From contig JBFHIG010000005.1 in assembly GCA_041596615.1 (NCBI GenBank), positions 1,214 to 65,213 of the forward strand: a DNA stretch of 64,000 bases, in the 5' to 3' direction. The notes below the pieces were generated by a model. That model ran no database searches. It saw only the letters and a list, made by a program, of their open reading frames with translations, and was not told where the DNA came from. Position 1 is the first letter of the stretch. Every line of letters begins with the position of its first letter. The translations under genes were made by a program, and so were the position numbers. This stretch comes from Candidatus Moraniibacteriota bacterium (GTDB lineage Bacteria > Patescibacteriota > Minisyncoccia > Moranbacterales > DUUL01). This document shows, one piece after another, positions 9,149 to 36,970 of the stretch.

Positions 9149-9426
9149 TTCGTTTTTTATTTATTTATGAATTTCCGTTATTTGACTCGGCAACGTTTAT
9201 ATGTATCCACTTTTAATTATAATCTACAACAAAAAACAAAGCAAAGGGCCACAAAAATACTAATAAAAAAGATTCCGTTTCACACGCAAGCATTTGATGT
9301 GATATATTTTGCGGAATTTAAAATAAATAGCTCTAACAAGGGGTGGTGTTTTCTGCACAGTTCAGACTCCGAAGTTAAGTTGATTGCAATTTAACATGAC
9401 GGGGCTCTGAATTATACATCTCGAAG

Positions 9427-9513
9427 CGGAGAGGGGGGGATTTGAACCCCCGAAGGCTTTTACACCTTACTTGCTTTCCAAGCAAGCGCACTAGGCCACT
9501 ATGCGACCTCTCC
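9427..9513 (-). tRNA. tRNA-Ser (anticodon GGA), long variable arm
   Basis: The reverse complement reads GGAGAGG-TC-GCATAGTGG...CTTGC-TTGGAAA-GCAAG...GGGGG-TTCAAAT-CCCCC-CCTCTCC-G. Cloverleaf has a 7-bp acceptor stem, a 7-nt anticodon loop with GGA, and a long extra arm. No encoded CCA. Confidence 0.9.
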
Positions 9514-12837: not shown

Positions 12838-12870
12838 TAAAAAAGACCTCGAAAATCGAAGTCTTTTTTA
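12838..12870. terminator. bidirectional-type hairpin terminating the pilus operon
   Basis: gacctcga (12845-12852) / tcgaagtc (12856-12863), one mismatch, flanked by an A-run and a T-run. Lies between the distal pilin stop (12918) and lemA. Confidence 0.55.
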
Positions 12871-12917: not shown

Positions 12918-13322
12918 TTAGTTTCGGATACAACTTCCAGTCGCAACTGTACAAGTAACAATATCGTTAGTACCGTCAGATGCTGCGATTGTGGTATCAT
13001 TAGCTGTTGAGTATACAAAGTTTCCACCTTGCAAGGCTTGTCCAGTAAGGAGAGGCCAAACTTCAGCAGTAATAGTGGTATCACTACAAATTGTATCAGT
13101 ACCTGGAGTTCCCGTAACAACATTTGTAACGTTTCCTCCGTCATTAACACACAGTGCAGCTAAAGTTGTTGCTGATGCTAATGTTGCCTGAAGAGCTCCA
13201 ACTCTTGCTCGATCTCTTGCACTGTTCAAACTTACCAACACGATTGCAGCCAAAATACCAATAATCGCAACTACAACCAAAAGTTCAACAAGTGTAAATC
13301 CTTTTTCTTTATTTTGTTTCAT
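12918..13322 (-). CDS. type IV pilin (distal, PilE-position)
   Basis: 134 aa. Class III signal KEKG|[24 protein letters not shown]. Four Cys in the C-terminal head. Confidence 0.85.
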   Translation of the reverse strand: MKQNKEKGFTLVELLVVVAIIGILAAIVLVSLNSARDRARVGALQATLASATTLAALCVNDGGNVTNVVTGTPGTDTICSDTTITAEVWPLLTGQALQGGNFVYSTANDTTIAASDGTNDIVTCTVATGSCIRN

Positions 13323-13424
13323 TGTGTCACCTCCTCGCTTAGAATCATCTTTTTATTTATTTTAATTATTTATCCTTTTTTCTTTTTTATATTAAATTAA
13401 ACTTACTACAGATTGTTTATCTTA

Positions 13425-13937
13425 TTAATACCTTTCTTTGTTCACACAACACCTTCTTTTATGATTGGATGTCTTGATGTCATCACTACTAATATCTCCA
13501 CAGCCATTTTTTCCGATCATAACAGCTTTTTCATTATCTGCATTTTCGATATCACCAACCCATTCATAATTATCAGTTCCGTCAGTTTCCATATCATTTA
13601 TTGTCACAACATTGCCCTCGTTCAATCTACAGGCCTCCATCCACTCATATGTCGTACAAAGCCTTGCCCCTTCATCATCAAGACAACTATATGCCGATTC
13701 GCCCCAGTTCTCATCTGTACTATTCAAAAGATCATCCATAATACAAGAGTCTCCAATTGGAACCCAATCGCTAGAGGGGCATCCATCTGAGGCAGCCCTA
13801 ACATTTATCCCAATATTTTTATTATAGTATTTAAAACCAATAACTGCAACTATAACAAAAGAAAGAAATGGCAATACTACAAGTCTGATTATCCTTTTCC
13901 CGAAAATCTGCTTATTTTTTTCCTTCATATTTTTCAA
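13425..13937 (-). CDS. TM-anchored protein with 8-Cys CTLD/DUF1566-like module (paralogue 3)
   Basis: 170 aa. N-terminal anchor IIRLVVLPFLSFVIVAVIGF with no prepilin box. Module CPSSDWVPIGDSCI...NWGESAYSCLDDEGARLCTTYEWMEAC...YEWVGD...AVMIGKNGC...RRCCVN aligns with the two upstream paralogues. Confidence 0.65.
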   Translation of the reverse strand: MKNMKEKNKQIFGKRIIRLVVLPFLSFVIVAVIGFKYYNKNIGINVRAASDGCPSSDWVPIGDSCIMDDLLNSTDENWGESAYSCLDDEGARLCTTYEWMEACRLNEGNVVTINDMETDGTDNYEWVGDIENADNEKAVMIGKNGCGDISSDDIKTSNHKRRCCVNKERY

Positions 13938-13938
13938 T

Positions 13939-14421
13939 TTAATATCTATTTACACAACAACGAAAATCATTTGAACTGCTAATGGTAGCTCTTTTCTCTA
14001 TTTCCTTACAACTGTTATTATTCCCAAATAAGACTACTGCTTGACCAGCATTAACAATGTCATCAGCCCACTCCCAATCAGGACCATCGATGTTATCACC
14101 AAAAGAAACTCCATCATTCATTTCCGTTTGGCAAGCAGCCATCAACTCCTCTGCTCTGCAAAGTCTTGCACCCTCATCCTCAGCACAAATCTTAGCAGCA
14201 TCTTGCCAAGTCTCGTTTCCAGCTAAATCACTTTGAATACAAAAATCAGCCACCTCGATGTAATCCGCTGGACAAGTATATGCTGCATTAGCCTTGCCAT
14301 TTAAATTTCCGCCATTTTGTTTTTGAATCAAATCGATTCTTGAAAATGCAAAAATAAACACATATAAGATACAGACAACAAAAGTCGCAACTGCCAATTT
14401 TTCATCAATAATGTTCTTCAT
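13939..14421 (-). CDS. TM-anchored protein with 8-Cys CTLD/DUF1566-like module (paralogue 2)
   Basis: 160 aa. Anchor LAVATFVVCILYVFIFAF. Module CPADYIEVADFCI...ETWQDAAKICAEDEGARLCRAEELMAAC...WEWADD...AVVLFGNNNSC...FRCCVN. Its stop lies 1 nt from the next start. Confidence 0.65.
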   Translation of the reverse strand: MKNIIDEKLAVATFVVCILYVFIFAFSRIDLIQKQNGGNLNGKANAAYTCPADYIEVADFCIQSDLAGNETWQDAAKICAEDEGARLCRAEELMAACQTEMNDGVSFGDNIDGPDWEWADDIVNAGQAVVLFGNNNSCKEIEKRATISSSNDFRCCVNRY

Positions 14422-14431
14422 ATAAATATTT

Positions 14432-15244
14432 TTATTTCGTATTCAAACAACAACGAAATCTATAAGTGTTATTTATTGACTCCTCTGAGCTATCGTCACA
14501 ATCACTAAAACCAAAAACAATAGCTTCGTTAATCTCTGTTAAATCATCAACTCTCTCCCATCCATCATCTATATTATTGAGTCCAACAGCCGCGCTCATT
14601 TGACATGCAGAAACCCATTCAGAAGAAGAGCAGAGTCTGGCATCAACCTCCAAGCAAGCATCAGCAGCATCTTCGAATGAATATTCGGCTGGAATCCCAC
14701 CACTGTCGATGTGCTCATTAGTTTCAATACAAAAATCAGAAATTTTTTCATAGCCGTTTGGACAACCAGCAAGCGCCAAAGAAACTTCTACTGCGCGGCT
14801 GACACTTTCATCTTTGTCTCCACTTCTTCCAATTGAGCGCACCGAATCAATTTCATAAATTTCTGTATCGCCGTCAAGAATTATCTCTCCTGTTATATCA
14901 ATAAAATATAATTCACAATCAACATTAGAGACTTCACTGGCGGGACACTGCATTCTTCCATCCGAAGCTAATGCACCGAAAACCTCTGAAATCTTTTTAC
15001 TAGAATCGGATTCATCAGCAATTGTTTTTAATGCGAATTCAATTCCAGAATCAGCAGCCTGAAAGGCTGGTGTTGAATTTTTAATACTAGAACTCATCTT
15101 TCCTTCAACCAACGAAATTGAGGCTATTACTGAAACAATTATAAGCGCATTAATCAAAACCAAAACCATCAGAATGATTGCTGAGCCTTTTTGCTCTTTT
15201 TGCTCTTTGTGCTTATTTTTGCCAGAGAAATTATTTTTTCTCAT
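14432..15244 (-). CDS. PilX_N-type minor-pilin-like protein fused to 8-Cys CTLD/DUF1566-like module (paralogue 1)
   Basis: 270 aa. N-terminus KGSAIILMVLVLINALIIVSVIASISLVEG...AADSGIEFAL (PilX N-terminal pattern). C-terminal CPNGYEKISDFCI...SFEDAADACLEVDARLCSSSEWVSAC...WERVDD...AIVFGFSDC...FRCCLN. Confidence 0.65.
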   Translation of the reverse strand: MRKNNFSGKNKHKEQKEQKGSAIILMVLVLINALIIVSVIASISLVEGKMSSSIKNSTPAFQAADSGIEFALKTIADESDSSKKISEVFGALASDGRMQCPASEVSNVDCELYFIDITGEIILDGDTEIYEIDSVRSIGRSGDKDESVSRAVEVSLALAGCPNGYEKISDFCIETNEHIDSGGIPAEYSFEDAADACLEVDARLCSSSEWVSACQMSAAVGLNNIDDGWERVDDLTEINEAIVFGFSDCDDSSEESINNTYRFRCCLNTK

Positions 15245-15289
15245 TTTTCAATCTTTATTAACAATATTAGTTCGCTTTTAAGCTAAATC

Positions 15290-15871
15290 TCAATAATCAC
15301 GCAATGAAACTCCTGATTGAATTGTTATTTCGCTCTTCTCAGTAACTATCGAAGAGGTATCATTATGCTCAATTTTAATAACAGTTTTTACAAATCCACG
15401 GTCATCAATCGCCTCGTTTGATTGTCTCAGAAAAAAACTTCCATCGATTTTAGTTTTCCCATCAGATGAACCAACCAATATTTCAAAATCATTAAAATCA
15501 CTATGAGAGCAATTGACGGCATCACTATCTGCATCGACTGAGTCAAAAAGCAAATTGTCATTTTCAAACTTAAAACATTGTTTTGTAGAATCAACATTAT
15601 CAACAAAGAAAATTTCGTTACTCTTCGTTAATTTTGGATCAACTGCTCCAGAGCCACTTATGTCGCTACTTGTTCTAACTTTTTTGTTTAACTTTTCGAT
15701 TGCAAAACGAGCATTTTCAAGAGAATTTTCCATAGCCTGACTCTTTGTATGCGCTTCAATTGTTCGAACACTAAAAAGAAGTATTGCCCCTACAATAACT
15801 GAAAAAATCGTAACTGAAATAATTACCTCAATCAAAGAAAATCCTTTTTGTATGTTTTTTAATTTCTTCAT
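15290..15871 (-). CDS. minor pilin, PilW/PulJ-like
   Basis: 193 aa. Prepilin box QKG|FSLIEVIISVTIFSVIVGAILLF, then ...ENARFAIEKLNKKVRTSS. Confidence 0.7.
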   Translation of the reverse strand: MKKLKNIQKGFSLIEVIISVTIFSVIVGAILLFSVRTIEAHTKSQAMENSLENARFAIEKLNKKVRTSSDISGSGAVDPKLTKSNEIFFVDNVDSTKQCFKFENDNLLFDSVDADSDAVNCSHSDFNDFEILVGSSDGKTKIDGSFFLRQSNEAIDDRGFVKTVIKIEHNDTSSIVTEKSEITIQSGVSLRDY

Positions 15872-16408
15872 TTATTCTTGCCAATCAGTTAAAGTCACTT
15901 TAGCCTCAGCTTTTCTTGAAATTGCAGCATTGACGAAACTATCCCAACTAACGGTGCATGTAACAACCATACGCTCAACTGTTCCGCCAATATTACATGT
16001 TCTCCTAAAAACGGTCTTTGATGGATCGATGCAGCCACTAGATAAACAATTACGATAAACTCCATTAACTAGGTCTAGCTCTACTTGTGGCAAACGATTA
16101 CCGTCGCATTCAGGATTTGGAGTATTTGTTTCAAAATATGGATTGCAGTTTCCCGTTGTTAATCCCGTATTTATTGCATTTCCTGCCATAACATTCTGAT
16201 CACGAATGTTCCTTACAATCTCAACCCCCTCTTGTGCCAAGTTTGAAGCTATTACTTCATATCTGCTGTCCACATTTCGACGAACAGTGCTTGCGTATAA
16301 TGAATATAAGGTAGTAAAAGTAATCCCTGTGATAGTGATAACCAAAATCACCTCCACCAAGGTATACCCTCCCCTATCTCTCTGTCTTCTTTTTAAAAAA
16401 TTTATCAT
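15872..16408 (-). CDS. minor pilin, PilV-like
   Basis: 178 aa. Prepilin box RGG|YTLVEVILVITITGITFTTLYSLY, then ASNLAQEGVEIVRNIRD. Contiguous with the next gene. Confidence 0.7.
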   Translation of the reverse strand: MINFLKRRQRDRGGYTLVEVILVITITGITFTTLYSLYASTVRRNVDSRYEVIASNLAQEGVEIVRNIRDQNVMAGNAINTGLTTGNCNPYFETNTPNPECDGNRLPQVELDLVNGVYRNCLSSGCIDPSKTVFRRTCNIGGTVERMVVTCTVSWDSFVNAAISRKAEAKVTLTDWQE

Positions 16409-16424
16409 ATATCAAAGTTAGCAA

Positions 16425-17006
16425 CTATTCTATCTTTCCAATAGTATTAATGTTAATTGATTTTTGCGCACCAACGTTTGTATTTTTAATATTAATAACA
16501 TAATCAGCCGCCAATGGCTGTCCATCATCCCCAAAAACATCACTATAAGGAACTCTAAAAAAAATGCCTTTTCCTACATTAGCAGCTTCAAACTCAAGAT
16601 CATTACCTAAAGTTCGGGTACTTAAATCCTCTTTCTGAGTACCTGCGACCAGAGTATATGAGTGATAATTTGTTTCATCTCTACAAGAATTTGGGTTATT
16701 CCCAAAATCAGAATCGCTAACATAGATATAAAAAATTTTATATATTTTATTCGTTTGAATGTAAACACCATAGCCACAAACATGCTTCTTCTCTGGATTA
16801 GGGATTGACAATGAAGATGTTTGTGCCGATCTAATGGCTACGCGTACTTCGTCTCGTGCTAAGGTTAGACTTTTGTGTGTATCAGAAAAGCGAGAAACAT
16901 TCAGAACCACGCCTGACAATATCACCACGATTGAAATCGAAACAATCAACTCAATGAGCGTGAATCCTTTGTTATTTAATTTTTTATCTGTTTTTTTATT
17001 TTTCAC
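16425..17006 (-). CDS. minor pilin, GspH/FimT-like
   Basis: 193 aa. Prepilin box NKG|FTLIELIVSISIVVILSGVVL, then LTLARDEVRVAIRSAQ. Confidence 0.7.
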   Translation of the reverse strand: MKNKKTDKKLNNKGFTLIELIVSISIVVILSGVVLNVSRFSDTHKSLTLARDEVRVAIRSAQTSSLSIPNPEKKHVCGYGVYIQTNKIYKIFYIYVSDSDFGNNPNSCRDETNYHSYTLVAGTQKEDLSTRTLGNDLEFEAANVGKGIFFRVPYSDVFGDDGQPLAADYVINIKNTNVGAQKSININTIGKIE

Positions 17007-17016
17007 TTAAGCAAAT

Positions 17017-17838
17017 TCAAAATAATATTTTATATAAGTATAGCAACTTTTCACCAAAAAACAAAAAAATAAAGCTACTGATTACAAGAAATGGCCCAAA
17101 TGGTATCTGTGACTTCCATCCCTTTTTTGATTTTTTGACTAAAATCAAAGCAATTACTGAACCTAAGACGTAAGTTATTAACAAAAAAGGATACACATGT
17201 TTCCAGCCGATTAACAGTCCCAGCCAAAAACCAAGTTTCACATCCCCACCCCCAATCCATTTTCCTTTTGAAATTGCGAATAAAACATAAAAAAAACCAC
17301 CTACTAAAAAAGATCCTAGAATGTTTTCGCTCACAAAACAACTGATAGAGAAAATTGAGCAAGATGCCAAAAAATAGTGAGCTAATATATATATTGTGGT
17401 CAATAAAAATCCACTTATAACTAATTTATCTGGAATTATCATATATTTAAGATCCCAAATAAAAATTGCGCTTAGCACGAAAATAACAGCTAAAAGATAA
17501 ATTGTTTCCAGAAAAATCCCCGTGCTGGGATTTAAATTTAAAATCAAACCAGTTTTAAATCCAACAGCCAAAAACAATACTCCTAAACAAAATTCCACCA
17601 ATGGATATTGAAAAGAAAGTTGTTTTTTGCATCTTGAGCATTTTCCTTTTACAAAAAAATATCCCAAAACTGGAACATTTTCAAACCATCTCAATTCTTT
17701 TTTGCAAAAATCACAGCAAGAAGATCCCAACAAACTCTCCTTTTTCTCGCCACGATCAACAAAAACATTCATAAAACTGCCAAAAATACTCCCCAACAAA
17801 AATAAAAAAACAGCTTTCAAGAAAAACAAAATTTCCAT
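17017..17838 (-). CDS. pilD: prepilin peptidase / N-methyltransferase (peptidase A24)
   Basis: 273 aa, polytopic. Cys box CCDFCKKELRWFENVPVLGYFFVKGKCSRCKK. Catalytic Asp contexts IIPDKL and GGGDVKLGFWLG. Confidence 0.9.
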   Translation of the reverse strand: MEILFFLKAVFLFLLGSIFGSFMNVFVDRGEKKESLLGSSCCDFCKKELRWFENVPVLGYFFVKGKCSRCKKQLSFQYPLVEFCLGVLFLAVGFKTGLILNLNPSTGIFLETIYLLAVIFVLSAIFIWDLKYMIIPDKLVISGFLLTTIYILAHYFLASCSIFSISCFVSENILGSFLVGGFFYVLFAISKGKWIGGGDVKLGFWLGLLIGWKHVYPFLLITYVLGSVIALILVKKSKKGWKSQIPFGPFLVISSFIFLFFGEKLLYLYKILF

Positions 17839-17856
17839 TCCTACTTTATATTAATA

Positions 17857-18306
17857 TTATGGCGTAGTTGCATCACAAGCTGCAGCAGTCGCTAGATGTT
17901 GACATTGGTTGCTACCACTGTTACAACAAATTCTAGCTGTTCCATCGTCTGTATATACAAACCAATTTCCATCTTCAAAAGCTCCATCACTGACATAATT
18001 ACTAAAATTTGTTGGCGCTCCGGTTTTTGGCCATTTGCCATAATTAGAACTCAAGCTACAAATATCCCCTCCTCCTGCACTATCGTGCGGTTCGTTGATT
18101 GTACCATCATCGCTCCTGCAAAGAACCATATTCTGAATTGCACCGGCCAATTGTGCCTGCATTTTTGCCTCTTCTGCTCTTTTTTTATGAGCAGAAACTG
18201 AAACCAGAATCGTCCCCGAAAGAATTGAAATTATCGCCAAAACCAGCAATAATTCAACTAGGGTAAAACCACCCTTTGAATCACTAATTTTATTTTTTTT
18301 TATCAT
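17857..18306 (-). CDS. type IV pilin paralogue
   Basis: 149 aa. SKGG|[24 protein letters not shown]. Six Cys in the head domain. Confidence 0.85.
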   Translation of the reverse strand: MIKKNKISDSKGGFTLVELLLVLAIISILSGTILVSVSAHKKRAEEAKMQAQLAGAIQNMVLCRSDDGTINEPHDSAGGGDICSLSSNYGKWPKTGAPTNFSNYVSDGAFEDGNWFVYTDDGTARICCNSGSNQCQHLATAAACDATTP

Positions 18307-18317
18307 AGGGAATGAAA

Positions 18318-18737
18318 TTAATTACAAACATAAGAATCGTTTGACTGACAGCAGTTCCCCCCATCCTTAGCAAAACAAGAAACAAATGTAGCACCACTGT
18401 CACAGCTAATCCTCCATCTCTTGTTGGTATCATCGAGATTTGCATATACACAGCCTGTGGTACCCAAACTTGGCCAAATAGCAGTAGTTCCAGCACAAAT
18501 CACACCTCCACCAGTTGAGGTGTTGGTCCAAGTTGAGAAAGTTTTATTGGTCAAATAACATTCCACTGCAACTGGCATAACACTTCTTCCAGTTTCCATT
18601 GCTGAAGTAAGCTTCGCTCTTTTCCTTTGGCCACTTAGAGACATGGTGATTGTCGCTGCTAGAATCCCAATAATAGCGATAACTGTTAAGAGTTCCATCA
18701 GCGTAAAGCCTTTTTCATTTCTTTGTTTTTTTTTCAT
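18318..18737 (-). CDS. type IV pilin paralogue
   Basis: 139 aa. NEKG|[24 protein letters not shown]. Eight Cys. Confidence 0.85.
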   Translation of the reverse strand: MKKKQRNEKGFTLMELLTVIAIIGILAATITMSLSGQRKRAKLTSAMETGRSVMPVAVECYLTNKTFSTWTNTSTGGGVICAGTTAIWPSLGTTGCVYANLDDTNKRWRISCDSGATFVSCFAKDGGNCCQSNDSYVCN

Positions 18738-18868
18738 TTGATGTGATGCATTTACTTTTTTTACACTTTCTTAAACTTCTCAACAAAAGATAATCAAACA
18801 CTGAATTTCCAAAAAACATAGCTCTTCTGAAAATTCAGTTGTTTAATGATCTAGATTTTTAAACAAAA

Positions 18869-19279
18869 CTAGTTACAACCAGTTCCTGTAAAAGTACAAC
18901 CTTCCTGTGTACAAGAAGCTGCACAAGAATCCGAAGCTGTTGTACAAGTACCTGTAATTGTCCAGTTATCAGCACTGGCATTTGCAACAGCAAGAGTAAC
19001 AGTACCACTACCAGTACAGTTATTAACTGTTGGAACGTTTCCTCCACCAGTACATATAGCAGATCCTGCAGTAACAGCCACAGCTAATCCCGCATCTCGA
19101 CAACTAGTTGCTGCTGGTGTCAAAGCTCTTAATTGTTGTTTAAAAGCAGTCACTCTCGCTCTTTCACGTTGTCTTCCTAGCGAAACAAACAGAACAGCAG
19201 CTAAGATACCAATAATCGCGATTACAAGCAAAAGCTCCACTAATGTGAACCCTTTTTCATTTTTATTTATTATTTTCAT
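18869..19279 (-). CDS. type IV pilin paralogue (first after pilC; major-pilin candidate)
   Basis: 136 aa. NEKG|[24 protein letters not shown]. Ala/Thr/Gly-rich head with eight Cys. Confidence 0.85.
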
Positions 19280-19385
19280 TTTTTCACCCGCCTTTCCATT
19301 TTCATTTTTAAATTATACAAATTAAATCTTTTTTTCTTTTAGGTAATACTTCACCATTCTAGCATAAAAAAAATTTTTATGGAAA

Positions 19386-20594
19386 TTAGGTGATTGATGT
19401 TGCTACTTGATAGATTGGCAACAGCACTGCAGAAACTAAAATTCCCACACCTATTGCTAAGAAAACCATCAAAATTGGCTCTATTAATGAGGAAAAATTC
19501 TTTACCATCCTGTCTGTTTCTGAAAGATAAAACGTAGTCACTCTCGACAAGGTAAATTCTATTCGTCCAGTGTGCTCTCCAACTCGGACCATCTGAACTA
19601 CCACAGGAGGAATAATTTCATATTTATTTAAAACATCAGCAATTCCACCACCTTTTTTAATTTCTTCCGCAGCCTCACGAATAATTTGCTGGTACACATA
19701 GTTTCCAACAACATCAGAAGTAATCATAAGCGCCGTTGTGATTGGCAAACCACTTTGAATCAATGTTGAAAGATTTTCAGAAAAACGCGCAATATAAACA
19801 TTGTGCAAAATTTTATTAATAATCGGGACTTTCAGTTTCAGCTGATCAAACTCTCTTTGACCTTCTTCTGTTTTGATATAGTAAATTATCCCCGAAATAC
19901 CGAAAATTACAGCAATCCCGACTGCCCACCAATAATTAGCCATAAAGTCACTAACTGCTATCAAAATTCTTGTTTGAATAGGAAGTGTTACATTTGATTC
20001 TTTTAATATCACTAGAAGTTTCGGCATCACAAAAGACATTATGATAAAACCAACGATCACCATTGCCGATAAGATAAAGGCTGGATAATACATTGCACCT
20101 TTCAATTTTGCGGTCAACTCATAGTTCTTTTCAGTGTTATCTGCCAAATCATTCAATGCTTTTTGCAGTGTACCAGAGGCCTCTCCAGCTTTAACCATGT
20201 TTACATAAAAAGGCGTGAAAGTATCAGAATTTTTCGCCATAGCCTCAGATAGAGATGACCCTCCGTCAATATCAACAATTACTGAGTTAATTTTCAAAGC
20301 AAAATATCTGTTTTCGGTTTGATTAGCGATTGAATGCAAAGCCGACAAAAGAGGTACTTTTGAATCAATCAATGTTGACAGTTGTCTGGAAAAAATTACA
20401 AACTCTTTCGGCCGAACACCTTCCCAAATCCTAAGAAGTCCTGAAAACAAAGGGATTTCTTTTACCTCTTCCAAGGAAACAATCGATAGGTTGTTTTGGA
20501 TTAGCAACTCTTTTGCTGCTCGAGTGGAAGATGCTTCAACAATTCCTTGTTGCAACTGTCCACTCTTATTTTGAGCTTTGTATTTAAATTTCAT
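19386..20594 (-). CDS. pilC: type IV pilus platform protein (GspF/PilC family)
   Basis: 402 aa. Two T2SSF repeats (FSRQLSTLIDSKVPLLSAL... and FSENLSTLIQSGLPITTAL...). Three TM segments. Confidence 0.9.
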   Translation of the reverse strand: MKFKYKAQNKSGQLQQGIVEASSTRAAKELLIQNNLSIVSLEEVKEIPLFSGLLRIWEGVRPKEFVIFSRQLSTLIDSKVPLLSALHSIANQTENRYFALKINSVIVDIDGGSSLSEAMAKNSDTFTPFYVNMVKAGEASGTLQKALNDLADNTEKNYELTAKLKGAMYYPAFILSAMVIVGFIIMSFVMPKLLVILKESNVTLPIQTRILIAVSDFMANYWWAVGIAVIFGISGIIYYIKTEEGQREFDQLKLKVPIINKILHNVYIARFSENLSTLIQSGLPITTALMITSDVVGNYVYQQIIREAAEEIKKGGGIADVLNKYEIIPPVVVQMVRVGEHTGRIEFTLSRVTTFYLSETDRMVKNFSSLIEPILMVFLAIGVGILVSAVLLPIYQVATSIT

Positions 20595-20628
20595 TTTTTA
20601 AATTTAATAAACTTGCTTTTTAATAAAA

Positions 20629-21708
20629 TTAAACCGTTTCAAGTAACATCCTAAAAGTATTAACATCAGTAGCATACATTTCTGCATCTTCCAAGGTAAC
20701 CTGCCCGTCTTTAACTAAAATTGCTAAGGCCCTGTTGATTCCAATCATGCCCTCCTCCAGGGAAGTCTCAATCGTAACACCTATTTGATGTGTCTGGTTT
20801 TGGCGAATTAGATTCTCAACAGCACGATTTTTAATTAAAACTTCAACAGCAGGAATTCTTCCTCCACCAATTTTTTTCAATAATCTCTGAGATACTACTC
20901 CTAATAACACATTTGCAAGTTGAAAACGAATCTGATTTTGCTGATATGCCGGGAAAACATCTATAATACGATCGACGGTTTGAACCGAATCGTTTGTGTG
21001 CAAGGTTCCCATAATTAAGTGCCCTGTTTCAGCTGCGGTAATGGCAGTGGAAATAGTCTCCAAATCCCTCATCTCGCCAACCAAGACAACGTCCACATCC
21101 TCACGAAAACAAGCGGTTAGGGCACTATGAAAATCCAGTGCATCTCTTCCGATTTCTCTTTGTTCAATCAAGCATTGATCAGAATGATGCAGATATTCAA
21201 TTGGATCTTCAATCGTGACAATATGATCTTGTCTGTTACGATTTATATAATCAATCAAAGCTGCTAGCGTTGTTGATTTTCCATGCCCAGTCGGACCAGT
21301 CAAAAGTAGCAAGCCTTGTGTTCTTTTAATAAACTCATAAAGAATATCGGGAACACCCAACTCTGACAATTGTTTAATTTCCTTTGGAATATATCTAAGA
21401 GCAAGGCTTATGTTGCCTTTTTGGTGAAACATATTGGCCCTAAAACGATCATGGGAATCAATTTCTATCGAAAAATCAACATGCATTTCATTCTCAAATT
21501 TATCTTTTTGTTTTTTATTTAAAAGAGATTCGGAAAGCGATATCATATCATCATGACTTATAACAGCTTCTTTACTGAGTCGATATAAAACACTGTCAAT
21601 TCTCATAATTGGATAGTCCCCAACTGATAAATGCAAGTCAGAGCCATTGTTTTGAACGACATTCGCAAGATACTTTTTGAGCTTTTGCCCTAATTGACTC
21701 TCTTTCAT
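20629..21708 (-). CDS. pilT: type IV pilus retraction ATPase
   Basis: 359 aa. Walker A GPTGHGKSTT, Asp box VLVGEMRD, His box GHLIMGTLHTN, typical PilT length. Confidence 0.9.
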   Translation of the reverse strand: MKESQLGQKLKKYLANVVQNNGSDLHLSVGDYPIMRIDSVLYRLSKEAVISHDDMISLSESLLNKKQKDKFENEMHVDFSIEIDSHDRFRANMFHQKGNISLALRYIPKEIKQLSELGVPDILYEFIKRTQGLLLLTGPTGHGKSTTLAALIDYINRNRQDHIVTIEDPIEYLHHSDQCLIEQREIGRDALDFHSALTACFREDVDVVLVGEMRDLETISTAITAAETGHLIMGTLHTNDSVQTVDRIIDVFPAYQQNQIRFQLANVLLGVVSQRLLKKIGGGRIPAVEVLIKNRAVENLIRQNQTHQIGVTIETSLEEGMIGINRALAILVKDGQVTLEDAEMYATDVNTFRMLLETV

Positions 21709-21749
21709 TTTATTTTTTTATAAATTTTGTTTTAGTTTCAAATATTTCT

Positions 21750-22139
21750 TTAGTTGCAATATTCAGCAACTTTAAAAACAATTTCTTCAGGAGTATAATT
21801 CGACTTAACTAAATAATCCTTTGCTCCCATGTTCATAGCACTACCCACATATTCTTCCTCCGTAGCATTGGTAAGCATAATAACTGGGATATCTCTCGTT
21901 ATATCTCTTTCCTTTAAGGCTCTTAAAACATCCATCCCACTAATTTTTGGCATAAAGATATCCAATAAAATTAAATCTGGTTTTTCCGTCTCAGCCCTCT
22001 TGATAGCCTCATCACCATCTCCGATAAGAATGGTTTCAAAACCCTCTTTTAAAAGCTTAGCAACATAGACCTCTGAAATAAACTTATCATCTTCTATTAC
22101 TAAAATTTTCTTAATTATCTCATTCTCGTTTTCGCTCAT
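21750..22139 (-). CDS. stand-alone response-regulator receiver (CheY/PilH-like)
   Basis: 129 aa. ILVIEDDKF, phospho-acceptor context DLILLDIFMPKISG, MLTNATEE, AKDYLVK. No output domain. Confidence 0.85.
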   Translation of the reverse strand: MSENENEIIKKILVIEDDKFISEVYVAKLLKEGFETILIGDGDEAIKRAETEKPDLILLDIFMPKISGMDVLRALKERDITRDIPVIMLTNATEEEYVGSAMNMGAKDYLVKSNYTPEEIVFKVAEYCN

Positions 22140-22152
22140 TTTTTCAAATTTA

Positions 22153-23868
22153 TTACTTATCTTCTCCTTCTAGAAGATCAATATTATTACCGATACTAGC
22201 AGTTTCTTTCTCTTTAATTTCAACGACTTCTCCAGAGGTGTCATTTTCTGGCTTGCCGTCACTAGGCTTCTCATCAGTAACTCTTTGAACTTCCTCAATT
22301 GTTGTATACCCTTCCAGCACTTTAAGTATACCATCTTGCTTCATTGTTGTGTATCCATCTTTCTTAGCTTCTTTTTCGATGTCTGACTCTAAGGTTCCAT
22401 CACCTATCATCTTCCCAACTGATTCAGTTATCTCGACCATCTCATAAATTCCAACTCTCCCTTTTGTTCCTTTGTTTTGACATTCATGGCATCCTTCCCC
22501 TTCATATGTAGTGATTTTTTTCAGTTCACTAATATTATTTATTCCAATCCTTTCCAATGCTTTAGTTGGAATATTTTTCAGCTCTGCTCTAATAACACCT
22601 TCTGCTGCAGTTGCTAAATTGCCAACCTCTCTTTTACATTTTGGGCAAATTCGCCTTACGAGTCGTTGCCCGATTAGAAGTTTCAAGGATGATGCTAGAA
22701 GAAATGGCTGAATCCCCATATCCACAAGTCGTGAAATTGCCCCAATCGCAGAGTTCGTATGTAAAGTAGAAAGAACAAGATGCCCTGTTAATGCAGCGTG
22801 AATAGCAAGTTCGGCTGTTTCCTCATCACGAATCTCTCCTACCATAATTACATCCGGGTCTTGACGTAAAATACTTCTCAACCCTGAAGAAAATGTATAC
22901 TCAATTTGAGGCTTAACCTGACTTTGATTAACTCCTTCAAGCACATATTCCACAGGGTCTTCAAGCGTAACAATATTAATTCCCTCCTTATTTAAGATAT
23001 TTAAAATTGAATATAAAGTTGTTGATTTTCCACTTCCTGTCGGACCCGTAACCAAAATAATCCCGTGTGGCTCTTCAATTATTCTTCGAATCAACTCATC
23101 ATCACGCCCTTCAACGCCAAGCTTGTCAAGGCCAATAACTCCAGTTCTGGTATCTAAAATACGCATAACAACCTTCTCCCCATATGATACTGGAAATGTT
23201 GAGACACGAAAATCAATTGTTTGCCCTAGATCCTTTATCCTAAAACGACCATCTTGTGGCTTTCGCTTTTCGTCAATCTTCAAATTAGATAAAATTTTAA
23301 TCCTAGAAACAATAGCTGGTCCAATTTTTTCTGGCAAAGAGATACTGTTGTATAAAATACCATCAACGCGATATCGAACTCTGACATACTCATCCATCGG
23401 CTCAATATGAATATCAGAAGCTCTACCGTCAATCGCATTTTTGATAATAACCTCAACCATTTTAGCCACTGGTGCATCCTTTAGGATATTCACCCCACCT
23501 CCTGATTTCTTTTTATCCAATCTAGCTTTTTCATCTTCTTCTACTTGGGAAGACTCTTCAAAGGCAGAGAGAAATTTATTAATCTCTACCGAAGAATTCT
23601 TCATTTTTCCCAATAAAATTTCAAAATCAGTTTCAGATATCGGAAAAATATCCACCCTCTTTTTGTTTTTCTGAACAAAGAAACGAAGAGCATTCTGTGT
23701 ATTTACGTCCGTTCTATCGACAACTGCAACTTTGATGCTATCAATCTCTTCCTCAAATGGTATAAATTTATATTTTTTTATTGAGTCAACTGGAAGCAAT
23801 TTAATAAGTCCCTTGTCAATTTTTATTTCCTCCCAATTTACAACTTTTTTTTCAATATTTGGAACCAT
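22153..23868 (-). CDS. pilB: type IV pilus assembly ATPase (GspE/PilB family)
   Basis: 571 aa. Walker A GPTGSGKSTT, IMVGEIRD, GHLVLSTLHTN, tetracysteine CPKC...CHEC. Confidence 0.9.
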   Translation of the reverse strand: MVPNIEKKVVNWEEIKIDKGLIKLLPVDSIKKYKFIPFEEEIDSIKVAVVDRTDVNTQNALRFFVQKNKKRVDIFPISETDFEILLGKMKNSSVEINKFLSAFEESSQVEEDEKARLDKKKSGGGVNILKDAPVAKMVEVIIKNAIDGRASDIHIEPMDEYVRVRYRVDGILYNSISLPEKIGPAIVSRIKILSNLKIDEKRKPQDGRFRIKDLGQTIDFRVSTFPVSYGEKVVMRILDTRTGVIGLDKLGVEGRDDELIRRIIEEPHGIILVTGPTGSGKSTTLYSILNILNKEGINIVTLEDPVEYVLEGVNQSQVKPQIEYTFSSGLRSILRQDPDVIMVGEIRDEETAELAIHAALTGHLVLSTLHTNSAIGAISRLVDMGIQPFLLASSLKLLIGQRLVRRICPKCKREVGNLATAAEGVIRAELKNIPTKALERIGINNISELKKITTYEGEGCHECQNKGTKGRVGIYEMVEITESVGKMIGDGTLESDIEKEAKKDGYTTMKQDGILKVLEGYTTIEEVQRVTDEKPSDGKPENDTSGEVVEIKEKETASIGNNIDLLEGEDK

Positions 23869-23939
23869 TTTACTTTAGCTATTTTTATTTTTTAGTTCTC
23901 CTTTGTTTCATTTCTGATTATCTCCTTTCTAAAGGAGAA

Positions 23940-24728
23940 TTAGTTTGAAAAAATATCACTTTTTCCTGCGCTTCCAGCTCCAACTGGCCTAAATATTTCA
24001 CTTGTAATATTTTCGTTATACTTATCAACAACACCCGTTTTAAATTGCCCACTTAATAGGCTTTTAATAACTGGGTCACTTGACCTAATAAGACTTGCTA
24101 TCTCTAATTTTTCATTCTCAGGCTTATTAAAAAATTCAAAAAGCAGTTCGCATTTTATTAATGCTCCATTAGAATCAGTCTCTGCCTCGCCTTCTCTAAC
24201 ATTTGACGCATCTACGTCTTGGGCAATAATCATGAGTTCTTTTGGAAGCGTTAGTCTGTTGTGTGAGTCTACTTCTTTAACAAACTCAAAAACATCCGTG
24301 TAAGATCCCATAACTGTTACTTTTATATCAGCTTGCTTAAGAGTCGGTTTAGAGGATCCTTCCATTATAATTTCTTCTGAAGTTTTACTACTACCGTTTA
24401 GGGCTTCGCTTTTAACTTTAGTGGAAATAATAAAGACACCACTTCTTTCGGCGCTCTTGTGAATCTCAGCTAAGAGATCGTCGTTGTTATCACTTTTGGG
24501 AATCGCATTTAAAACCAAACTTTCCTGATCTGATGTCAGCGAATTAAGTTTTTTTGCTGCATTCATAATCGAGTCATGCCCGCTCTTTAGATCGTCAAGT
24601 TGCTTCGTTAATAGATCTAACTCTCCTTGCCTGTCTTTGTATATATCCCACTCTGGCTTTGTGAAAAAAATGGTCACCATAAAAGCAACGAGCAGTGCGA
24701 TTGGAAAGAAAAGAATTTTTAATTTCAT
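23940..24728 (-). CDS. PilO-like pilus alignment protein
   Basis: 262 aa. N-terminal TM FFPIALLVAFMVTIFF, coiled coil, then VTVMGSYTDVFEFVKEVDSHNRL (PilO-like core). Positioned after pilM-pilN. Confidence 0.6.
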   Translation of the reverse strand: MKLKILFFPIALLVAFMVTIFFTKPEWDIYKDRQGELDLLTKQLDDLKSGHDSIMNAAKKLNSLTSDQESLVLNAIPKSDNNDDLLAEIHKSAERSGVFIISTKVKSEALNGSSKTSEEIIMEGSSKPTLKQADIKVTVMGSYTDVFEFVKEVDSHNRLTLPKELMIIAQDVDASNVREGEAETDSNGALIKCELLFEFFNKPENEKLEIASLIRSSDPVIKSLLSGQFKTGVVDKYNENITSEIFRPVGAGSAGKSDIFSN

Positions 24729-24768
24729 TTTTATTTTTTAGTTCTTATTTAAGACAACAAAGAAGTTT

Positions 24769-25317
24769 TTATTTAGCCTCTTCTTTCATATAAAAACCTA
24801 TAAGACCCTCAATGCCAGTCCCTTCTTTATCAACTTTACTTGAGTCCAGAAGCACTGTATCAACATCATCACCTATCAAACTAAATGCTTCCATTTGCTT
24901 TGCTAACTCATTGTGATTTTCAACAATAACAGAGGCTGCTATTGCAGTTTTTCCTGTCTGATTCTCAAATCCCAAGACTTTAAATTTAGTAGTTGGAAGT
25001 GTATATCTTGCGATTTTATTCAAAACGACACTTTGCATCGTCTTTCTGTCCATCAGTCCTTCAATCTCAATCAAACGATCCTGGAAATCATACAACTTTT
25101 TTACCTCCGCCGTGTTCATTTGATCCTCCACTTGCGTGATTTCTGACCTGATTTCTTGACTTTTAGCTTCCGTTTCAATGCCTAAGTATTTAACCAAGCC
25201 AAAAGCCGCTAAGCCCAATGCGAGTGTTGAAATTCCCAAGACCAAGGACCTATTACTACTCTGACTATTGGGTTTCCTGCTCGACATCTCATTTGATCTG
25301 AGATTTATTTTTGCCAT
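24769..25317 (-). CDS. PilN-like pilus alignment protein
   Basis: 182 aa. N-terminal KINL motif, single TM LVLGISTLALGLAAFGLV, coiled coil. Immediately downstream of pilM. Confidence 0.6.
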   Translation of the reverse strand: MAKINLRSNEMSSRKPNSQSSNRSLVLGISTLALGLAAFGLVKYLGIETEAKSQEIRSEITQVEDQMNTAEVKKLYDFQDRLIEIEGLMDRKTMQSVVLNKIARYTLPTTKFKVLGFENQTGKTAIAASVIVENHNELAKQMEAFSLIGDDVDTVLLDSSKVDKEGTGIEGLIGFYMKEEAK

Positions 25318-25338
25318 TTTTTTGAATTTATTTTTATT

Positions 25339-26481
25339 TTATGCTTGCTTTTTGTCCTCGAAAGAGTTTAGCGCTAAACCAACAGCAATCACCAGCTCGG
25401 AACCATGCTCTTCAATGACATGTTGAATATTCTCCGGGTAATTAATAGTTTTAAATGGATCACCTATTCTAGTCTCCATATTCAATTCTTTTTGTAGATA
25501 TTCTGGCATACCCAACAATTTCGCTCCTCCTCCCGTCAAAACTATTTCGCTTATTTCTATACCTTCATAGGTTTTTTTAATGGCTTTATTGGTCTTTCTG
25601 ATCTCTTCAACGATAGCATCCATAACCTGACCAATCATCTCCGTCCCACCCTGAGCTTCTCCCGCCTTCATTCCTTGGGTATATTTGATTTTTTCAGCTC
25701 TTTGAATATCCACACCCAAGCTTCTTGCGATTGTCTTAGTTATTCTATCTCCAGCGATATCAATTGTCCTGTTCAGTAAAACATTCCCATTTGAAACAGC
25801 TACGATATTACAAACTTTATGCCCAATATCCAAAATAAGATGTGGGGCTTTATTATCACCAATCAAAGCCCTTGTCAAAGAAAAGGCATCGATTTCCAAC
25901 GAATCTATTTTCAAACCAGCGGTCGAAAAAACTTTTTCATATTGAGCGCTAATCTCTCTCATAATAGCTACTAATAAAATATGTATCTTCCCATCCCTTT
26001 TAACTCCAGGAACGGCATCTTCTTCAGTTTTTTCATCACCTTCATCAATCAATTGCCATCCATAAACCACATCGGCTAACTGGACTGGGATATATTTAGG
26101 AGCTTCGTTTTGAATTATTTCATCAATATCATCTTTTGCAGTTTTTGGGATTTCTATTGCTGTTATCAAAGAAGAGAAACTCGGAACTGCTGCTTGCACA
26201 TGTTTCTTTGAGATTTCTGCTTCCCTTAATGTTTTCTCAAGCAATTCACTGGCCAAATCACTAATAATACCAGACGTTCCTGGTCTTATTATCTCCTCTT
26301 TACTCTTAGCGATAGCATAATTCTTTAGATGAATTGCATTTCCAACTCGTTCCAAAACTACAACTTTTATACTTGCGCTTCCAACATCAACACCAACGGA
26401 GATATTTTTATTTCCGCCAAATAAACTGCCCAGCAAATCGTCTTTTATTTTATCAAAAATAGAAACTTTACCACCATTCAT
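25339..26481 (-). CDS. pilM: type IV pilus assembly protein PilM (actin-like ATPase fold)
   Basis: 380 aa. VGVDVGSASIKVVVLE, ILDIGHKVCNIVAV, LTGGGAKLLGMPEYL. Confidence 0.85.
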   Translation of the reverse strand: MNGGKVSIFDKIKDDLLGSLFGGNKNISVGVDVGSASIKVVVLERVGNAIHLKNYAIAKSKEEIIRPGTSGIISDLASELLEKTLREAEISKKHVQAAVPSFSSLITAIEIPKTAKDDIDEIIQNEAPKYIPVQLADVVYGWQLIDEGDEKTEEDAVPGVKRDGKIHILLVAIMREISAQYEKVFSTAGLKIDSLEIDAFSLTRALIGDNKAPHLILDIGHKVCNIVAVSNGNVLLNRTIDIAGDRITKTIARSLGVDIQRAEKIKYTQGMKAGEAQGGTEMIGQVMDAIVEEIRKTNKAIKKTYEGIEISEIVLTGGGAKLLGMPEYLQKELNMETRIGDPFKTINYPENIQHVIEEHGSELVIAVGLALNSFEDKKQA

Positions 26482-26591
26482 CTTTTCTTTTTATCTTATC
26501 TTTTTATTTTTCGTTAGATAACTATATACAAAAAACCTCAAGATACTACTTAGAGCTTATATTTACCCTATAAGCAAACAAGAATCTTATA

Positions 26592-26620
26592 TTTACTTTC
26601 AAATATAAAAATGCTATAAT
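26592..26620 (+). promoter_or_regulatory. candidate sigma-70 promoter of clpC
   Basis: -35 TTTACT (26592-26597), 17-bp spacer, extended -10 TGcTATAAT (26612-26620), about 45 nt upstream of the ATG. The -35 lies inside the second copy of a CTTATATTTAC direct repeat. Confidence 0.45.
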
Positions 26621-26665
26621 ATCCTGTAAACGTAAAGTTAATTTAATTATATCACGGTTCGAACA

Positions 26666-29125
26666 ATGCGCAAGCGATTCACAAAAAATGCTCAACTAGC
26701 AATAGCTACACTTAAGCAAATTAATTCCTCAAAAAAACTAACATCAATAGATGCCAGACTTTTCATTCAAGCACTCTTGATGCAAAAGGGGAGCTTTGGG
26801 AAAACAATCCTTGAGACTACACTACCTAAAAACATCTTGATTAAATTTGAAAATGAGAAACAAATACAGCTAACTTCAAAAAAGAATACTTTAACTGCTC
26901 AAGATATTATCAACAAAGCAACTAAAAAAGCTTTTCTTGGAAAAAGTTCTTTTATTGGAACTGAGCATTTAGCAAATGAAATTTTAGAGATCCCAGAAAT
27001 TTCGAAAAATATTGTCAAAAGAAAAATGAGGGTCTCATCAAAGAAAGGTACTGGGAATTTCTCTGATAATTCAATTGGGAAAAATGCCTCCCAAAATGAT
27101 TTCTTTGGTGAACTAAATTCTATTATTGAAAATTTCTTCAATCCTAATAGCCCTCAAAATATCAAAAGAAAAACATCTGGCAAAAATTTCTATACAGATT
27201 TGACCGCGAAACCTCAAGATGACCATATTTTAGTCGGGAGAGAGTATGAAATAGAAAGAATCTCTCATATACTTGGAAGAAAAATGAAAAATAATCCAGT
27301 ATTAATTGGTGACCCTGGCGTTGGAAAAACTGCAATAGTTGAGGGATTGGCTAAAAAAATCAGAGAGGGCAAGGCCGAATATTATTTATTTGGAAAGAGA
27401 ATTTTCAGTCTTGATCTAGGACTACTAATTGCTGGAACAACTTTTCGAGGCGAGTTTGAGGCCAGACTTAAAGACATCATAGATCAAATAAAAAAAGACC
27501 CTAATATTATTTTATTCGTGGATGAAATTCACAATCTGATTGGAGCTGGAAACGCTTCTGGCGGAATGGACGCTGCAAATCTCCTAAAGCCAATTCTTTC
27601 ACGTGGAGAAATTCAATTAATCGGTGCAACTACTATCGAAGAATATCGCAAGCACATTGAAAAAGATGCTGCTTTAGAAAGAAGATTACAACCAATCATC
27701 GTTAAAGAACCAACAATAGAAGAAACAAAAAAAATTCTAGATGGAATTAAAAAATCATACGAGACTTTTCATAATGTCTCGATTTCAGATGATGCAAACA
27801 GAACCGCAGCTATTTTCGCAAAAAGATATTTAACAGAAAGAAATCTCCCTGATAGCGCTATCGACTTGATTGATGAAACAGCTTCTCGCTTACGCTCTGG
27901 AGCCTCTGATAGTTTAGTTTATCGAAAAATTAAAACCTTGGAGGAAAAAATAGAAAGAATTAAAACAGAAAAAGAGCTCTTGGTAATTAGCGACCGTTAT
28001 GAAGATGCGATTAGAATGAGATCTGAAGAAAATAAAACTATGGCAGTATTAAAAAAACTGCAAAAAGAGTTTGTCAAAGAATCAGAAAAGAATAAAGTAA
28101 CTGTAACTGCTGATGAAATCAAGAACACTTTAGCAGAACTTTCCAGAATTCCAAAGGAAATTTTGGCACAAGACAATGATGCAATTACCAAAAAAGTGAA
28201 AAAATCTCTCCGGGAGGGATTATTCGGACAGATAAAAGTTAGAGAACACATATCCAATACCATTCTTAGGCAAGTTAGTGGCATTTCAAACCCCAATCGA
28301 CCATTAGGATCATTCCTCTTCGTGGGACCATCTGGTGTTGGAAAAACTCATTGTGCAAAATTACTAGCGGGGGCAATTTCTCCTACTTCGCACAAAGATG
28401 CTCTCATCCAAATCAATATGAGCGAATTTATGGAAAGACACACCGTTTCTAGATTACTTGGCGCACCAGCTGGCTATGTTGGTTATGAAGAAAGCGGTGA
28501 ATTTGCTGATAAAGTCAGACGTAACCCCTACAGTGTCGTGCTTTTTGATGAAATTGAAAAAGCTGACCCTTCAATCCTCAATATCCTCTTACAAATTCTT
28601 GAGGAAGGTGAGATTTCTGATTCAAAAGGAAGAAAAATTAATTTCAGAAATACTATTGTCATCCTTACTTCAAACATTGGAATTACGGAGCTAAATAAGA
28701 TTTCGGAACTTGGTTTCAATAAAAAAAGTTTACCCAAGAAAGCTGGATACGAAGAGATTACAAGTTCTATAATCGAACAGATTGAGGAAATTCTCTCGCC
28801 AGAGCTTATTAATCGTTTAGATCATATCCTTCCATTTAATACTCTCTCGAGCAGAAACATTGAGGCGATTATCAAAAAGGAGCTAGGCGCATTAAAAGAA
28901 AGATTATCACAACGTTCGATTGAGTTTGATTTCGATAAATCAATCCTTAGGTTTATTTCCAAGAAAAGCAAAAGTTTTGAACTTGGTGCCAGACAAATCA
29001 GAAAACATATTCAGGATTCTATTGAGCCTATTATTGCTAAAAAAATAGTTTCCCACAAAAACATTGTCAAAATCTCAATCACAAACAAAAAAGAAAGAAT
29101 CGTTGCCGAGATTATCAAAAAATAG
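26666..29125 (+). CDS. clpC: AAA+ chaperone/unfoldase, ClpC-like
   Basis: 819 aa. Clp_N-like repeats. D1 Walker [10 protein letters not shown]. Short middle domain. D2 Walker [13 protein letters not shown] tripeptide (ISELGFNKK) at the position of the ClpP-docking loop. Confidence 0.8.
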
Positions 29126-36965: not shown

Positions 36966-36970
36966 CACAT

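Follow-up and report, generated by a model that had tools for sequence, protein, structure and literature searches.

How does a bacterium of the candidate phyla radiation (CPR) build a type IV pilus, and what would such a pilus hold on to? We addressed this question in a 64,000-nucleotide stretch of DNA from Candidatus Moraniibacteriota bacterium (GCA_041596615.1, contig JBFHIG010000005.1, positions 1,214 to 65,213 of the forward strand; hereafter the window), in which 18 co-directional minus-strand genes, running from 26481 down to 12918, form a pilus operon. With a probability of roughly 0.8, this operon specifies the entire type IVa-like pilus machine of an uncultured, ultra-small CPR bacterium, monoderm in type and related to Moranbacteria, in which a PilX-type minor pilin fused to a C-type-lectin-like domain (PilX-CTLD) would be the tip adhesin.

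The genes are separated by junctions of 0-131 bp on the map of open reading frames (ORFs) of the window. They follow one another in the order PilM, PilN-position protein, PilO, PilB, receiver, PilT, PilC, three pilins and PilD, and continue with three class III minor pilins, the PilX_N-type minor pilin, two small Cys-rich proteins and a distal pilin (table 1). The whole operon fits within 13.6 kb, its gaps are too small for any further ORF, and it lies in a chromosomal context with a G+C content of about 35%. An initial annotation of this DNA had announced nineteen genes; the actual number is 18, to which its own list also sums. The core components on that list were recovered by Pfam and NCBIfam profile annotation, with PilN assigned by position only. 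The two borders that it had drawn also held. At the end of the operon the terminator hairpin is real, with a 91-nt fold of -30.5 kcal/mol (z -5.3) followed by a U-tract. At the other end, the gap between pilM and a divergent gene for a ClpC-type ATPase holds two face-to-face pairs of promoter-like hexamers, TTTACA-17-TATATT on the minus strand (26630-26602) and TTTACT-17-TATAAT with a TG on the plus strand (26592-26620). The promoter role of these hexamers and the transcript structure of the operon are predictions from sequence. This divergent arrangement is kept in two related loci, L003 and L007.

Related loci were collected by a PilB scan over one genome per GTDB species, which returned 80 loci with 45-62% identity. 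Nearly all of them are titled Moraniibacteriota/Moranbacteria, Paceibacterota, Parcubacteria or Patescibacteria, some are titled 'uncultured Bdellovibrionales' or 'Saccharibacteria', and the closest are Patescibacteria, mostly metagenome-assembled genomes of Moranbacteria. A tblastn search with the 18 proteins showed that the gene order, including the divergent ClpC, the receiver, the PilX-type gene and the distal pilin, is common to L003, L007, L005, L006 and L004; the order with both the divergent ClpC and the downstream LemA/M48 genes is conserved in these and in L083/L084. L083 (GCA_018694175.1) and L084 (an ENA assembly) have the same operon, with core proteins of L083 80-90% identical, and are likewise flanked by LemA, an M48 peptidase, pyruvate kinase, an HD protein, an ABC transporter, DnaG and RpoD. 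Judging by its PilB relatives and by the operon and flanks of L083/L084, the organism is a Moranbacteria-related member of the CPR/Patescibacteria. By exact match, the window's own proteins were recovered only on short Logan contigs of run SRR29257459. As a separate observation, L002, L003, L008, L011 and others combine a Patescibacteria-like PilB and layout with the titles 'uncultured Bdellovibrionales bacterium' or 'Micavibrio', and are probably mislabelled.

Among the machinery genes, PilB carries Walker A, a His box and two CxxC pairs. The presence of both ATPases, with PilT above its TIGR01420 cut-off, agrees with the extension/retraction system that had been proposed for this locus. PilC was scored about equally by the GspF and PilC models of NCBIfam. 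PilD is predicted to process prepilins through two catalytic-Asp motifs, IPD (residue 135) and GGGD (residue 196). PilO has orthologues in 21 related loci by tblastn. The protein encoded between PilM and PilO has no Pfam or NCBIfam match and showed no similarity by BLASTP to the PilN of a second pilus-related locus in the window; an orthologue with 28% identity occupies the same place in L003. The stand-alone receiver has an acidic pair, a candidate phospho-acceptor Asp ('LLD', D60 by position), T90 and K107, functional residues that we assigned by eye. Of the 80 related loci that have both ATPases, 62 place the receiver between PilB and PilT. There is no histidine kinase in the pilus operon.

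We searched all six frames of the 64 kb with a regular expression for the class III motif G|[FY][TS]L[IVM]E, which occurs exactly seven times, always within the pilus operon. The seven proteins are pilins 1-3, minor pilins 1-3 and the distal pilin; N_methyl scores above cut-off in each, and the seven class III proteins claimed at the outset are therefore confirmed. Pilin 1 is the best candidate for the major pilin, since it combines a promoter-like site of its own (19385-19356, extended -10), a strong Shine-Dalgarno-like leader (GGAAAGG..GGGTGA), a hairpin that follows the gene and the lowest conservation in the operon. Its identity to L083 is 55%, as compared with 80-90% for PilT, PilC, PilB and PilD. 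The AU-rich hairpin is a possible attenuating terminator. A clear Shine-Dalgarno sequence was found only for pilin 1 and the distal pilin, the remaining operon genes having A-rich leaders. The position of the distal pilin is conserved in L003, L007, L083, L086 and L087, and this protein could be an abundant subunit instead of a PilE-type minor pilin.

Between PilD and the accessory genes lie four consecutive minor-pilin genes, the fourth of which encodes a PilX/GspK-like protein that lacks Glu5 (G|SAIIL). Its PilX_N match is sub-threshold in the window, and rises to 37.2 bits, above threshold, in orthologue P0007. Orthologues of PilX-CTLD fall into 13 clusters, with 66-73% identity and outliers at 38-40%; PF14341 is precomputed for 12 of the 13. 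Orthology of minor pilins 1-3 to FimU, PilV and PilW (GspH/I/J) was considered and rejected: all NCBIfam matches (E<=1), the best of them that of minor pilin 2 to the PilV model TIGR02523, were below cut-off and covered the N-terminal helix only, and orthologue profiles of the minor pilins (A4-A6) matched solved-structure sequences only in the N-terminal alpha1 helix. For this reason we do not adopt the labels FimU, PilV and PilW. The 'Pseudomonas-like minor-pilin synteny' that had been described therefore stands as an order by position, while PilY1 is missing and FimU/PilV/PilW orthology went undetected in the profile comparison. By position and by the PilX_N match, the four genes would represent a generic GspH/I/J/K-like priming set.

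The adhesive part of the proposal is the C-terminal module of the PilX-type protein. In the 270-aa protein this module begins at residue ~157 to 161 and ends at 270. The AlphaFold model (predicted local distance difference test, pLDDT, 77.7) consists of a helix (22-77), a sheet (97-155) and the CTLD (161-270). Its best Foldseek match was 8oks_B, with a template-modelling (TM) score of 0.74 and a root-mean-square deviation of 2.6. Accessory CTLD protein 1 was modelled at pLDDT 88.5 as a helix (5-35), a linker and a two-helix multi-strand domain, and gave 127 matches at E<=1e-3 against solved structures, all of the listed ones CTLDs. The best of these was 8oks_A, the C-terminal domain of Bdellovibrio Bd2740 (E 3.5e-6, TM 0.77); snake-venom C-type lectins, mincle, NKR-P1 and Legionella Lcl came next. 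The three copies of the module, one on PilX and one in each accessory protein, align over ~115 residues with eight conserved Cys (alignments A1 and A2) and are mutually 35-39% identical at the protein level. No Pfam family scored above cut-off for the module; only weak matches to DUF7495, FGE-sulfatase, Xlink and UL45, all families with a C-type-lectin fold, were obtained. The two AlphaFold models and their CTLD matches bear out, at the level of the fold, the label 'lectin module' used in the initial annotation.

It is less certain that the two accessory proteins are pilus parts. They could instead be surface receptors, either anchored in the membrane or secreted, that do no more than share a transcript with the minor pilins, which we regard as the lesser of the two possibilities, although one of appreciable weight. 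Neither bears a class III signal, only an N-terminal hydrophobic helix of ~30 residues, and the PilX-CTLD of locus L087 does without them. The family, moreover, ends many fibres and lipoproteins. When a profile of the CTLD was run against 1.84 billion cluster representatives, it retrieved 618 members at E<=1e-3, most of them C-terminal ends of fibre-like or lipoprotein-like proteins of other bacteria, with a PilX-type N-terminal part in 6 of the top 150 matches. Relatives of the accessory proteins emerged only from this profile search and a word-index search, tblastn of the two against the 80 GTDB-representative loci having returned nothing. Their place in the operon argues the other way: the genes come after the PilX-type gene and before the distal pilin, across junctions of 10 bp, and their products are paralogues of the pilin-fused domain. 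In L083/L084, PilX-CTLD, a 160-aa protein, a 172-aa protein and the distal pilin occur in identical layout, with the orthologue of accessory protein 1 66% identical. In L086 (Logan SRR27456861, 3139-4020) the same place, between PilX-CTLD and the distal pilin, is taken by a single protein of 293 aa that combines one hydrophobic N-terminus with two CTLDs in tandem, despite only 40% identity between the PilX proteins of the two loci. This fusion of both accessory genes argues that their products act together and belong to the minor-pilin cluster. Elsewhere, non-pilin adhesins encoded in minor-pilin clusters ride on the pilus tip, PilY1 being an example. Signal peptidase I may free the accessory proteins (candidate sites AFS|R and VIG|F, read by eye), which would then join the tip; alternatively, they may remain at the cell surface.

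Two further ideas about the CTLD genes were rejected. Silent recombination cassettes for the PilX C-terminus would not be expected to look like these genes, which are 35-39% identical, each with a start and a hydrophobic N-terminus of its own, and which persist as genes in relatives. An obligate three-gene set is refuted by L087, which has PilX-CTLD alone. Likewise, the ~700-aa ORFs found in several loci downstream of the minor-pilin genes, considered as giant PilX adhesins, turned out to be NAD-dependent DNA ligase.

The PilX position itself is occupied by different proteins in the related loci. L003 has a bare PilX of 151 aa, L005 and L006 have a form of 214-217 aa with a short Cys-rich tail, and L007 (L007:17510-18496) has PilX_N joined to Fib_succ_major (PF09603, 89.9 bits). 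With a CTLD here, Fib_succ_major in L007 and nothing in L003, the C-terminal module of PilX appears exchangeable, as expected of a swappable adhesin. This comparison points to the C-terminus of PilX as an interchangeable cassette for recognising hosts (bare, Fib_succ_major or CTLD), which could help to predict host range from metagenomes.

Taken together, we propose that the pilus would work as follows. PilD would cleave the seven prepilins, and PilM, the PilN-position protein, PilO and PilC would form the membrane platform. The filament, built most likely from pilin 1, would be polymerised by PilB and retracted by PilT, with the receiver between the two ATPases probably gating extension against retraction. 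The three class III minor pilins and the PilX_N-type protein would prime assembly and finish at the tip, where the PilX-fused CTLD would be the adhesin that contacts the cell surface of a host or partner, and the two downstream CTLD proteins would serve as accessory binding modules alongside it. We infer both the tip location of PilX-CTLD and the type of its ligand. The filament would cross only the cytoplasmic membrane and the wall, and with one membrane and a wall to cross it would need no secretin.

The same machine could in principle be a competence pilus that reels in environmental DNA, with adhesion secondary, but we consider it unlikely that this is its main role. PilT retraction powers DNA uptake in other bacteria, and a ComF-family protein is encoded one gene away from the operon, overlapping the end of the ClpC-type gene, a neighbour that may link the pilus operon to DNA uptake. 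Dedicated monoderm Com pili are not known to have PilT or PilMNO, and the ComGA model scored far below the PilB/GspE models for PilB. Neither ComEA nor ComEC is encoded within the operon, and the binding domains at the proposed tip are of protein/glycan type, unlike known DNA-binding pilins. In CPR genomes, competence components are enriched alongside type IV pili (PMC6744442); the tested pilus mutants of Nanosynbacter lyticus TM7x kept wild-type competence (PMC11623550). DNA uptake and adhesion are compatible, not mutually exclusive, roles.

The secretin-less pilus that we favour agrees with what is present in the window. The Pfam models Secretin, Secretin_N, PilP and LysM (TsaP-type) had no match in the 57 window ORFs scanned, and the seven remaining ORFs (43848-47054, 50213-51936 and 54205-56566), which we read by eye, encode ordinary enzymes such as MurC, TsaE, phosphomannomutase and YchF. 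The earlier statements that nothing in either pilus locus of the window resembles PilQ, PilP or TsaP, and that the pilus is of monoderm type, are thus supported, the latter by the lack of outer-membrane parts in the window and by published PilQ-less CPR pili (PMC6744442). In CPR, PilB/T/C/M/N/O/D are co-localised, no PilQ was found across thousands of genomes (Meheust et al. 2019, PMC6744442), and microscopy suggests that CPR cells have no Gram-negative envelope (PMC6744442). The claim of a secretin-less pilus is supported as correct, and has been known for CPR since 2019. A type II secretion-like pseudopilus, or a diderm with its secretin encoded elsewhere, is very improbable: PilB and PilC match GspE/GspF about as well as the PilB/PilC models and the examined sequence is 64 kb, but there is a genuine PilT above cut-off, PilM/PilO instead of GspL/GspM/GspC, several pilins with Cys-rich globular heads, no GspD in the window, and a CPR organism, a group in which PilQ was not found across thousands of genomes (PMC6744442).

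Several points weigh against the complete, adhesin-tipped pilus. The PilN assignment is made from position and one hydrophobic segment. PilB is below the equivalog cut-offs of both TIGR02538 PilB (546 bits) and TIGR02533 GspE (548 bits), so that the choice between PilB and GspE comes from context. A genome-wide lack of secretin is extrapolated from 64 kb and the literature. The strong ribosome-binding site of pilin 1 is matched by one at the distal pilin, which makes the assignment of major and minor pilins tentative. Neither accessory protein has a prepilin motif, and L087, where the distal pilin comes straight after PilX-CTLD, indicates that the accessory genes are dispensable. Finally, the Ca2+/sugar motifs EPN, QPD and WND are found in none of the three CTLD copies. 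Lectin activity is not implied, and 'lectin' is used here as the name of a fold, not of a demonstrated activity.

We then compared the locus with known systems. As in other CPR pilus loci (PMC6744442; T4P-1/T4P-2 of TM7x, PMC11623550), PilBTCMNOD and pilins are co-localised without PilQ. CPR genomes also have several pilus loci each, and the window holds a second PilMNO set at 57811-60616. Nanosynbacter lyticus binds its host and twitches by means of type IV pili (Grossman et al. 2024, PMC11623550), and PilX-type minor pilins of Saccharibacteria bear lectin-like C-terminal domains (PMC11623550). The likeness to TM7x thus extends to a PilX-type minor pilin with a C-terminal lectin-like domain, proposed as a tip adhesin. 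However, PilX1 and PilX2 of TM7x carry a CBM-like domain and a beta-propeller, whereas the domain here has a compact C-type-lectin-like fold; in addition, the present organism is Moranbacteria-like and not of the Saccharibacteria, and here two stand-alone CTLD genes follow PilX, all in one operon.

The monoderm type IVa pilus of Streptococcus sanguinis is likewise secretin-less, with PilB/T/C/D/M/N/O, and has adhesive modules at the C-terminus of the minor pilins of its tip complex (PMC8179133, PMC9934059). There the modules are a vWA domain on PilB and a ConA-like lectin on PilC, both canonical class III pilins (PMC8179133, PMC9934059), while here the module-bearing pilin is PilX_N/GspK-like without Glu5 and is accompanied by non-pilin copies of the module. 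The fimU-pilVWXY1Y2E cluster of Pseudomonas aeruginosa is similar by position only: three class III minor pilins, a PilX-type protein, non-pilin accessories and a distal pilin. The slot of PilY1 (vWA and beta-propeller) is taken here by two CTLD proteins of 160 and 170 aa. Unlike the present operon, the Pseudomonas minor-pilin cluster lies apart from pilBCD and pilMNOPQ and works with a secretin.

Structurally, the best match of the CTLDs is Bd2740, a surface fibre tip used by the predatory bacterium Bdellovibrio bacteriovorus on its prey (MAT fibre; PDB 8oks; TM 0.73-0.77 normalised to the target; Caulton et al. 2024, PMC10769870). Bd2740 resembles the CTLDs here in its compact C-type lectin fold without a calcium motif, a fold that it uses without calcium, and it sits at a filament tip, in a bacterium that has to recognise other bacteria (PMC10769870). 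It differs in that its sequence identity to them is 16-19% and in that it forms a homotrimeric fibre tip that is not part of a pilus. The C-terminal domain of Legionella Lcl (8q4e) is another compact bacterial CTLD. A CTLD on a type IV minor pilin was not described in the literature searched. The CTLD adhesin set, with one copy on a PilX-type pilin and two free-standing, is a modestly new element.

In phage Mtd, too, the CTLD fold is used without calcium. A bolder idea, which we hold to be rather improbable, is that the three consecutive paralogous CTLDs, one carried on PilX and two produced as small proteins of their own, come together as a single heterotrimeric lectin-like head at the tip of the pilus, anchored via a single pilin stem and serving an ultra-small episymbiont in the recognition of its host cell. 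If this were true, the head would be a pilus-borne analogue of the trimeric CTLD tips of Bdellovibrio MAT fibres and of phage Mtd, and would constitute a way other than PilY1 to load non-pilin adhesins on such a filament.

Type IV pili are regarded as the chief organelle with which CPR bacteria find, hold and exploit their hosts. Nearly all functional work so far concerns oral Saccharibacteria, and this locus adds a compact, fully syntenic example from the Moranbacteria side together with a concrete adhesin set for testing, namely the PilX-type pilin with its CTLD head and its two paralogues. The secretin-less, monoderm-style pilus in itself leaves current understanding unchanged, as it has been published for CPR, and lectin-like PilX in Saccharibacteria was reported in 2024.

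Table 1. Coordinates of the pilus operon genes, operon borders and other features of the 64-kb window (cut-offs in brackets).
Feature	Coordinates	Strand	Size	Matches and remarks
PilM, actin-like cytoplasmic assembly protein	25339..26481	minus	380 aa	PF11104 E 1.4e-37; TIGR01175 164.3 bits (133)
PilN-position protein	24769..25317	minus	182 aa	location between PilM and PilO; single N-terminal hydrophobic segment
PilO	23940..24728	minus	262 aa	PF04350 23.4 bits (22), marginal
PilB extension ATPase	22153..23868	minus	571 aa	T2SSE (PF00437) E 1.2e-135; N-terminal MshEN (PF05157)
Stand-alone CheY-type receiver	21750..22139	minus	129 aa	PF00072 Response_reg E 4.9e-25
PilT retraction ATPase	20629..21708	minus	359 aa	TIGR01420 436.3 bits (319.1); AIRNLIRE-like motif AVENLIR
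PilC platform protein	19386..20594	minus	402 aa	PF00482 T2SSF, two stretches, E 3.3e-59
Pilin 1	18869..19279	minus	136 aa	N_methyl E 5e-10; 8 Cys
Long AU-rich hairpin directly downstream of pilin 1	18800..18839	minus		z -3.2
Pilin 2	18318..18737	minus	139 aa	N_methyl E 3e-8; class III motif; 8 Cys
Pilin 3	17857..18306	minus	149 aa	N_methyl E 4e-7; class III motif; 6 Cys
PilD prepilin peptidase	17017..17838	minus	273 aa	PF06750 (A24_N_bact) E 5.5e-26; PF01478 (Peptidase_A24) E 2.5e-13
Minor pilin 1	16425..17006	minus	193 aa	class III signal; N_methyl; orthologues at same position in related loci
Minor pilin 2	15872..16408	minus	178 aa	GYTLVE; N_methyl 22.1 bits; weakly PilV-like, TIGR02523 22.3 (52.2)
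Minor pilin 3	15290..15871	minus	193 aa	class III signal; N_methyl
PilX-CTLD, PilX_N-type minor pilin without Glu5, C-terminal CTLD	14432..15244	minus	270 aa	PilX_N 22.6 bits (25.5), sub-threshold
Accessory CTLD protein 1	13939..14421	minus	160 aa	N-terminal hydrophobic helix; one CTLD; no prepilin motif
Accessory CTLD protein 2	13425..13937	minus	170 aa	from TTG; 167 aa from ATG at 13928
Distal pilin	12918..13322	minus	134 aa	N_methyl E 1.7e-10; class III signal; 4 Cys; strong Shine-Dalgarno; GAGGAGGTGA
Intrinsic-terminator-like hairpin and U-tract	12838..12870	minus		operon end
Divergent intergenic region, pilM/ClpC-type ATPase gene	26482..26665		184 bp	promoter-like hexamers on both strands, overlapping
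ClpC-type gene	26666-29125			divergent from pilM
ComF-family protein	29064-29864	plus		Pribosyltran and double zinc ribbon; TIGR00201 103 bits, below cut-off
Second pilus-related locus	57811-63725	minus		upstream end past window (64000)
Second locus, vWA protein	62259-63725	minus	488 aa	sole vWA protein of window
Second locus, protein with pilin-like hydrophobic N-terminus	60633-62090	minus	485 aa	no family match
Second locus, PilM	59525-60616	minus		PF11104 E 2e-47; 25% identical to first PilM
Second locus, weak PilN	59008-59541	minus		21 bits (22.8)
Second locus, PilO-position protein	58335-58991	minus
Second locus, acidic protein	57811-58335	minus	174 aa
RNase P RNA, bacterial class A	48655-49024	minus		158.7 bits
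tRNA gene	9426-9513
tRNA gene	36879-36966
tRNA gene	57609-57683

The second pilus-related locus is listed in table 1 together with the RNA genes. No ATPase, class III pilin or secretin is visible in its in-window part. Along the window, GC skew is -0.2 to -0.3 where genes lie on the minus strand (1-36000 and 44000-64000) and near zero where they lie on the plus strand (36-44 kb). This pattern fits a strong coding-strand purine bias, and a comparable strand disparity is described for a Microgenomates genome (PMC7143001).

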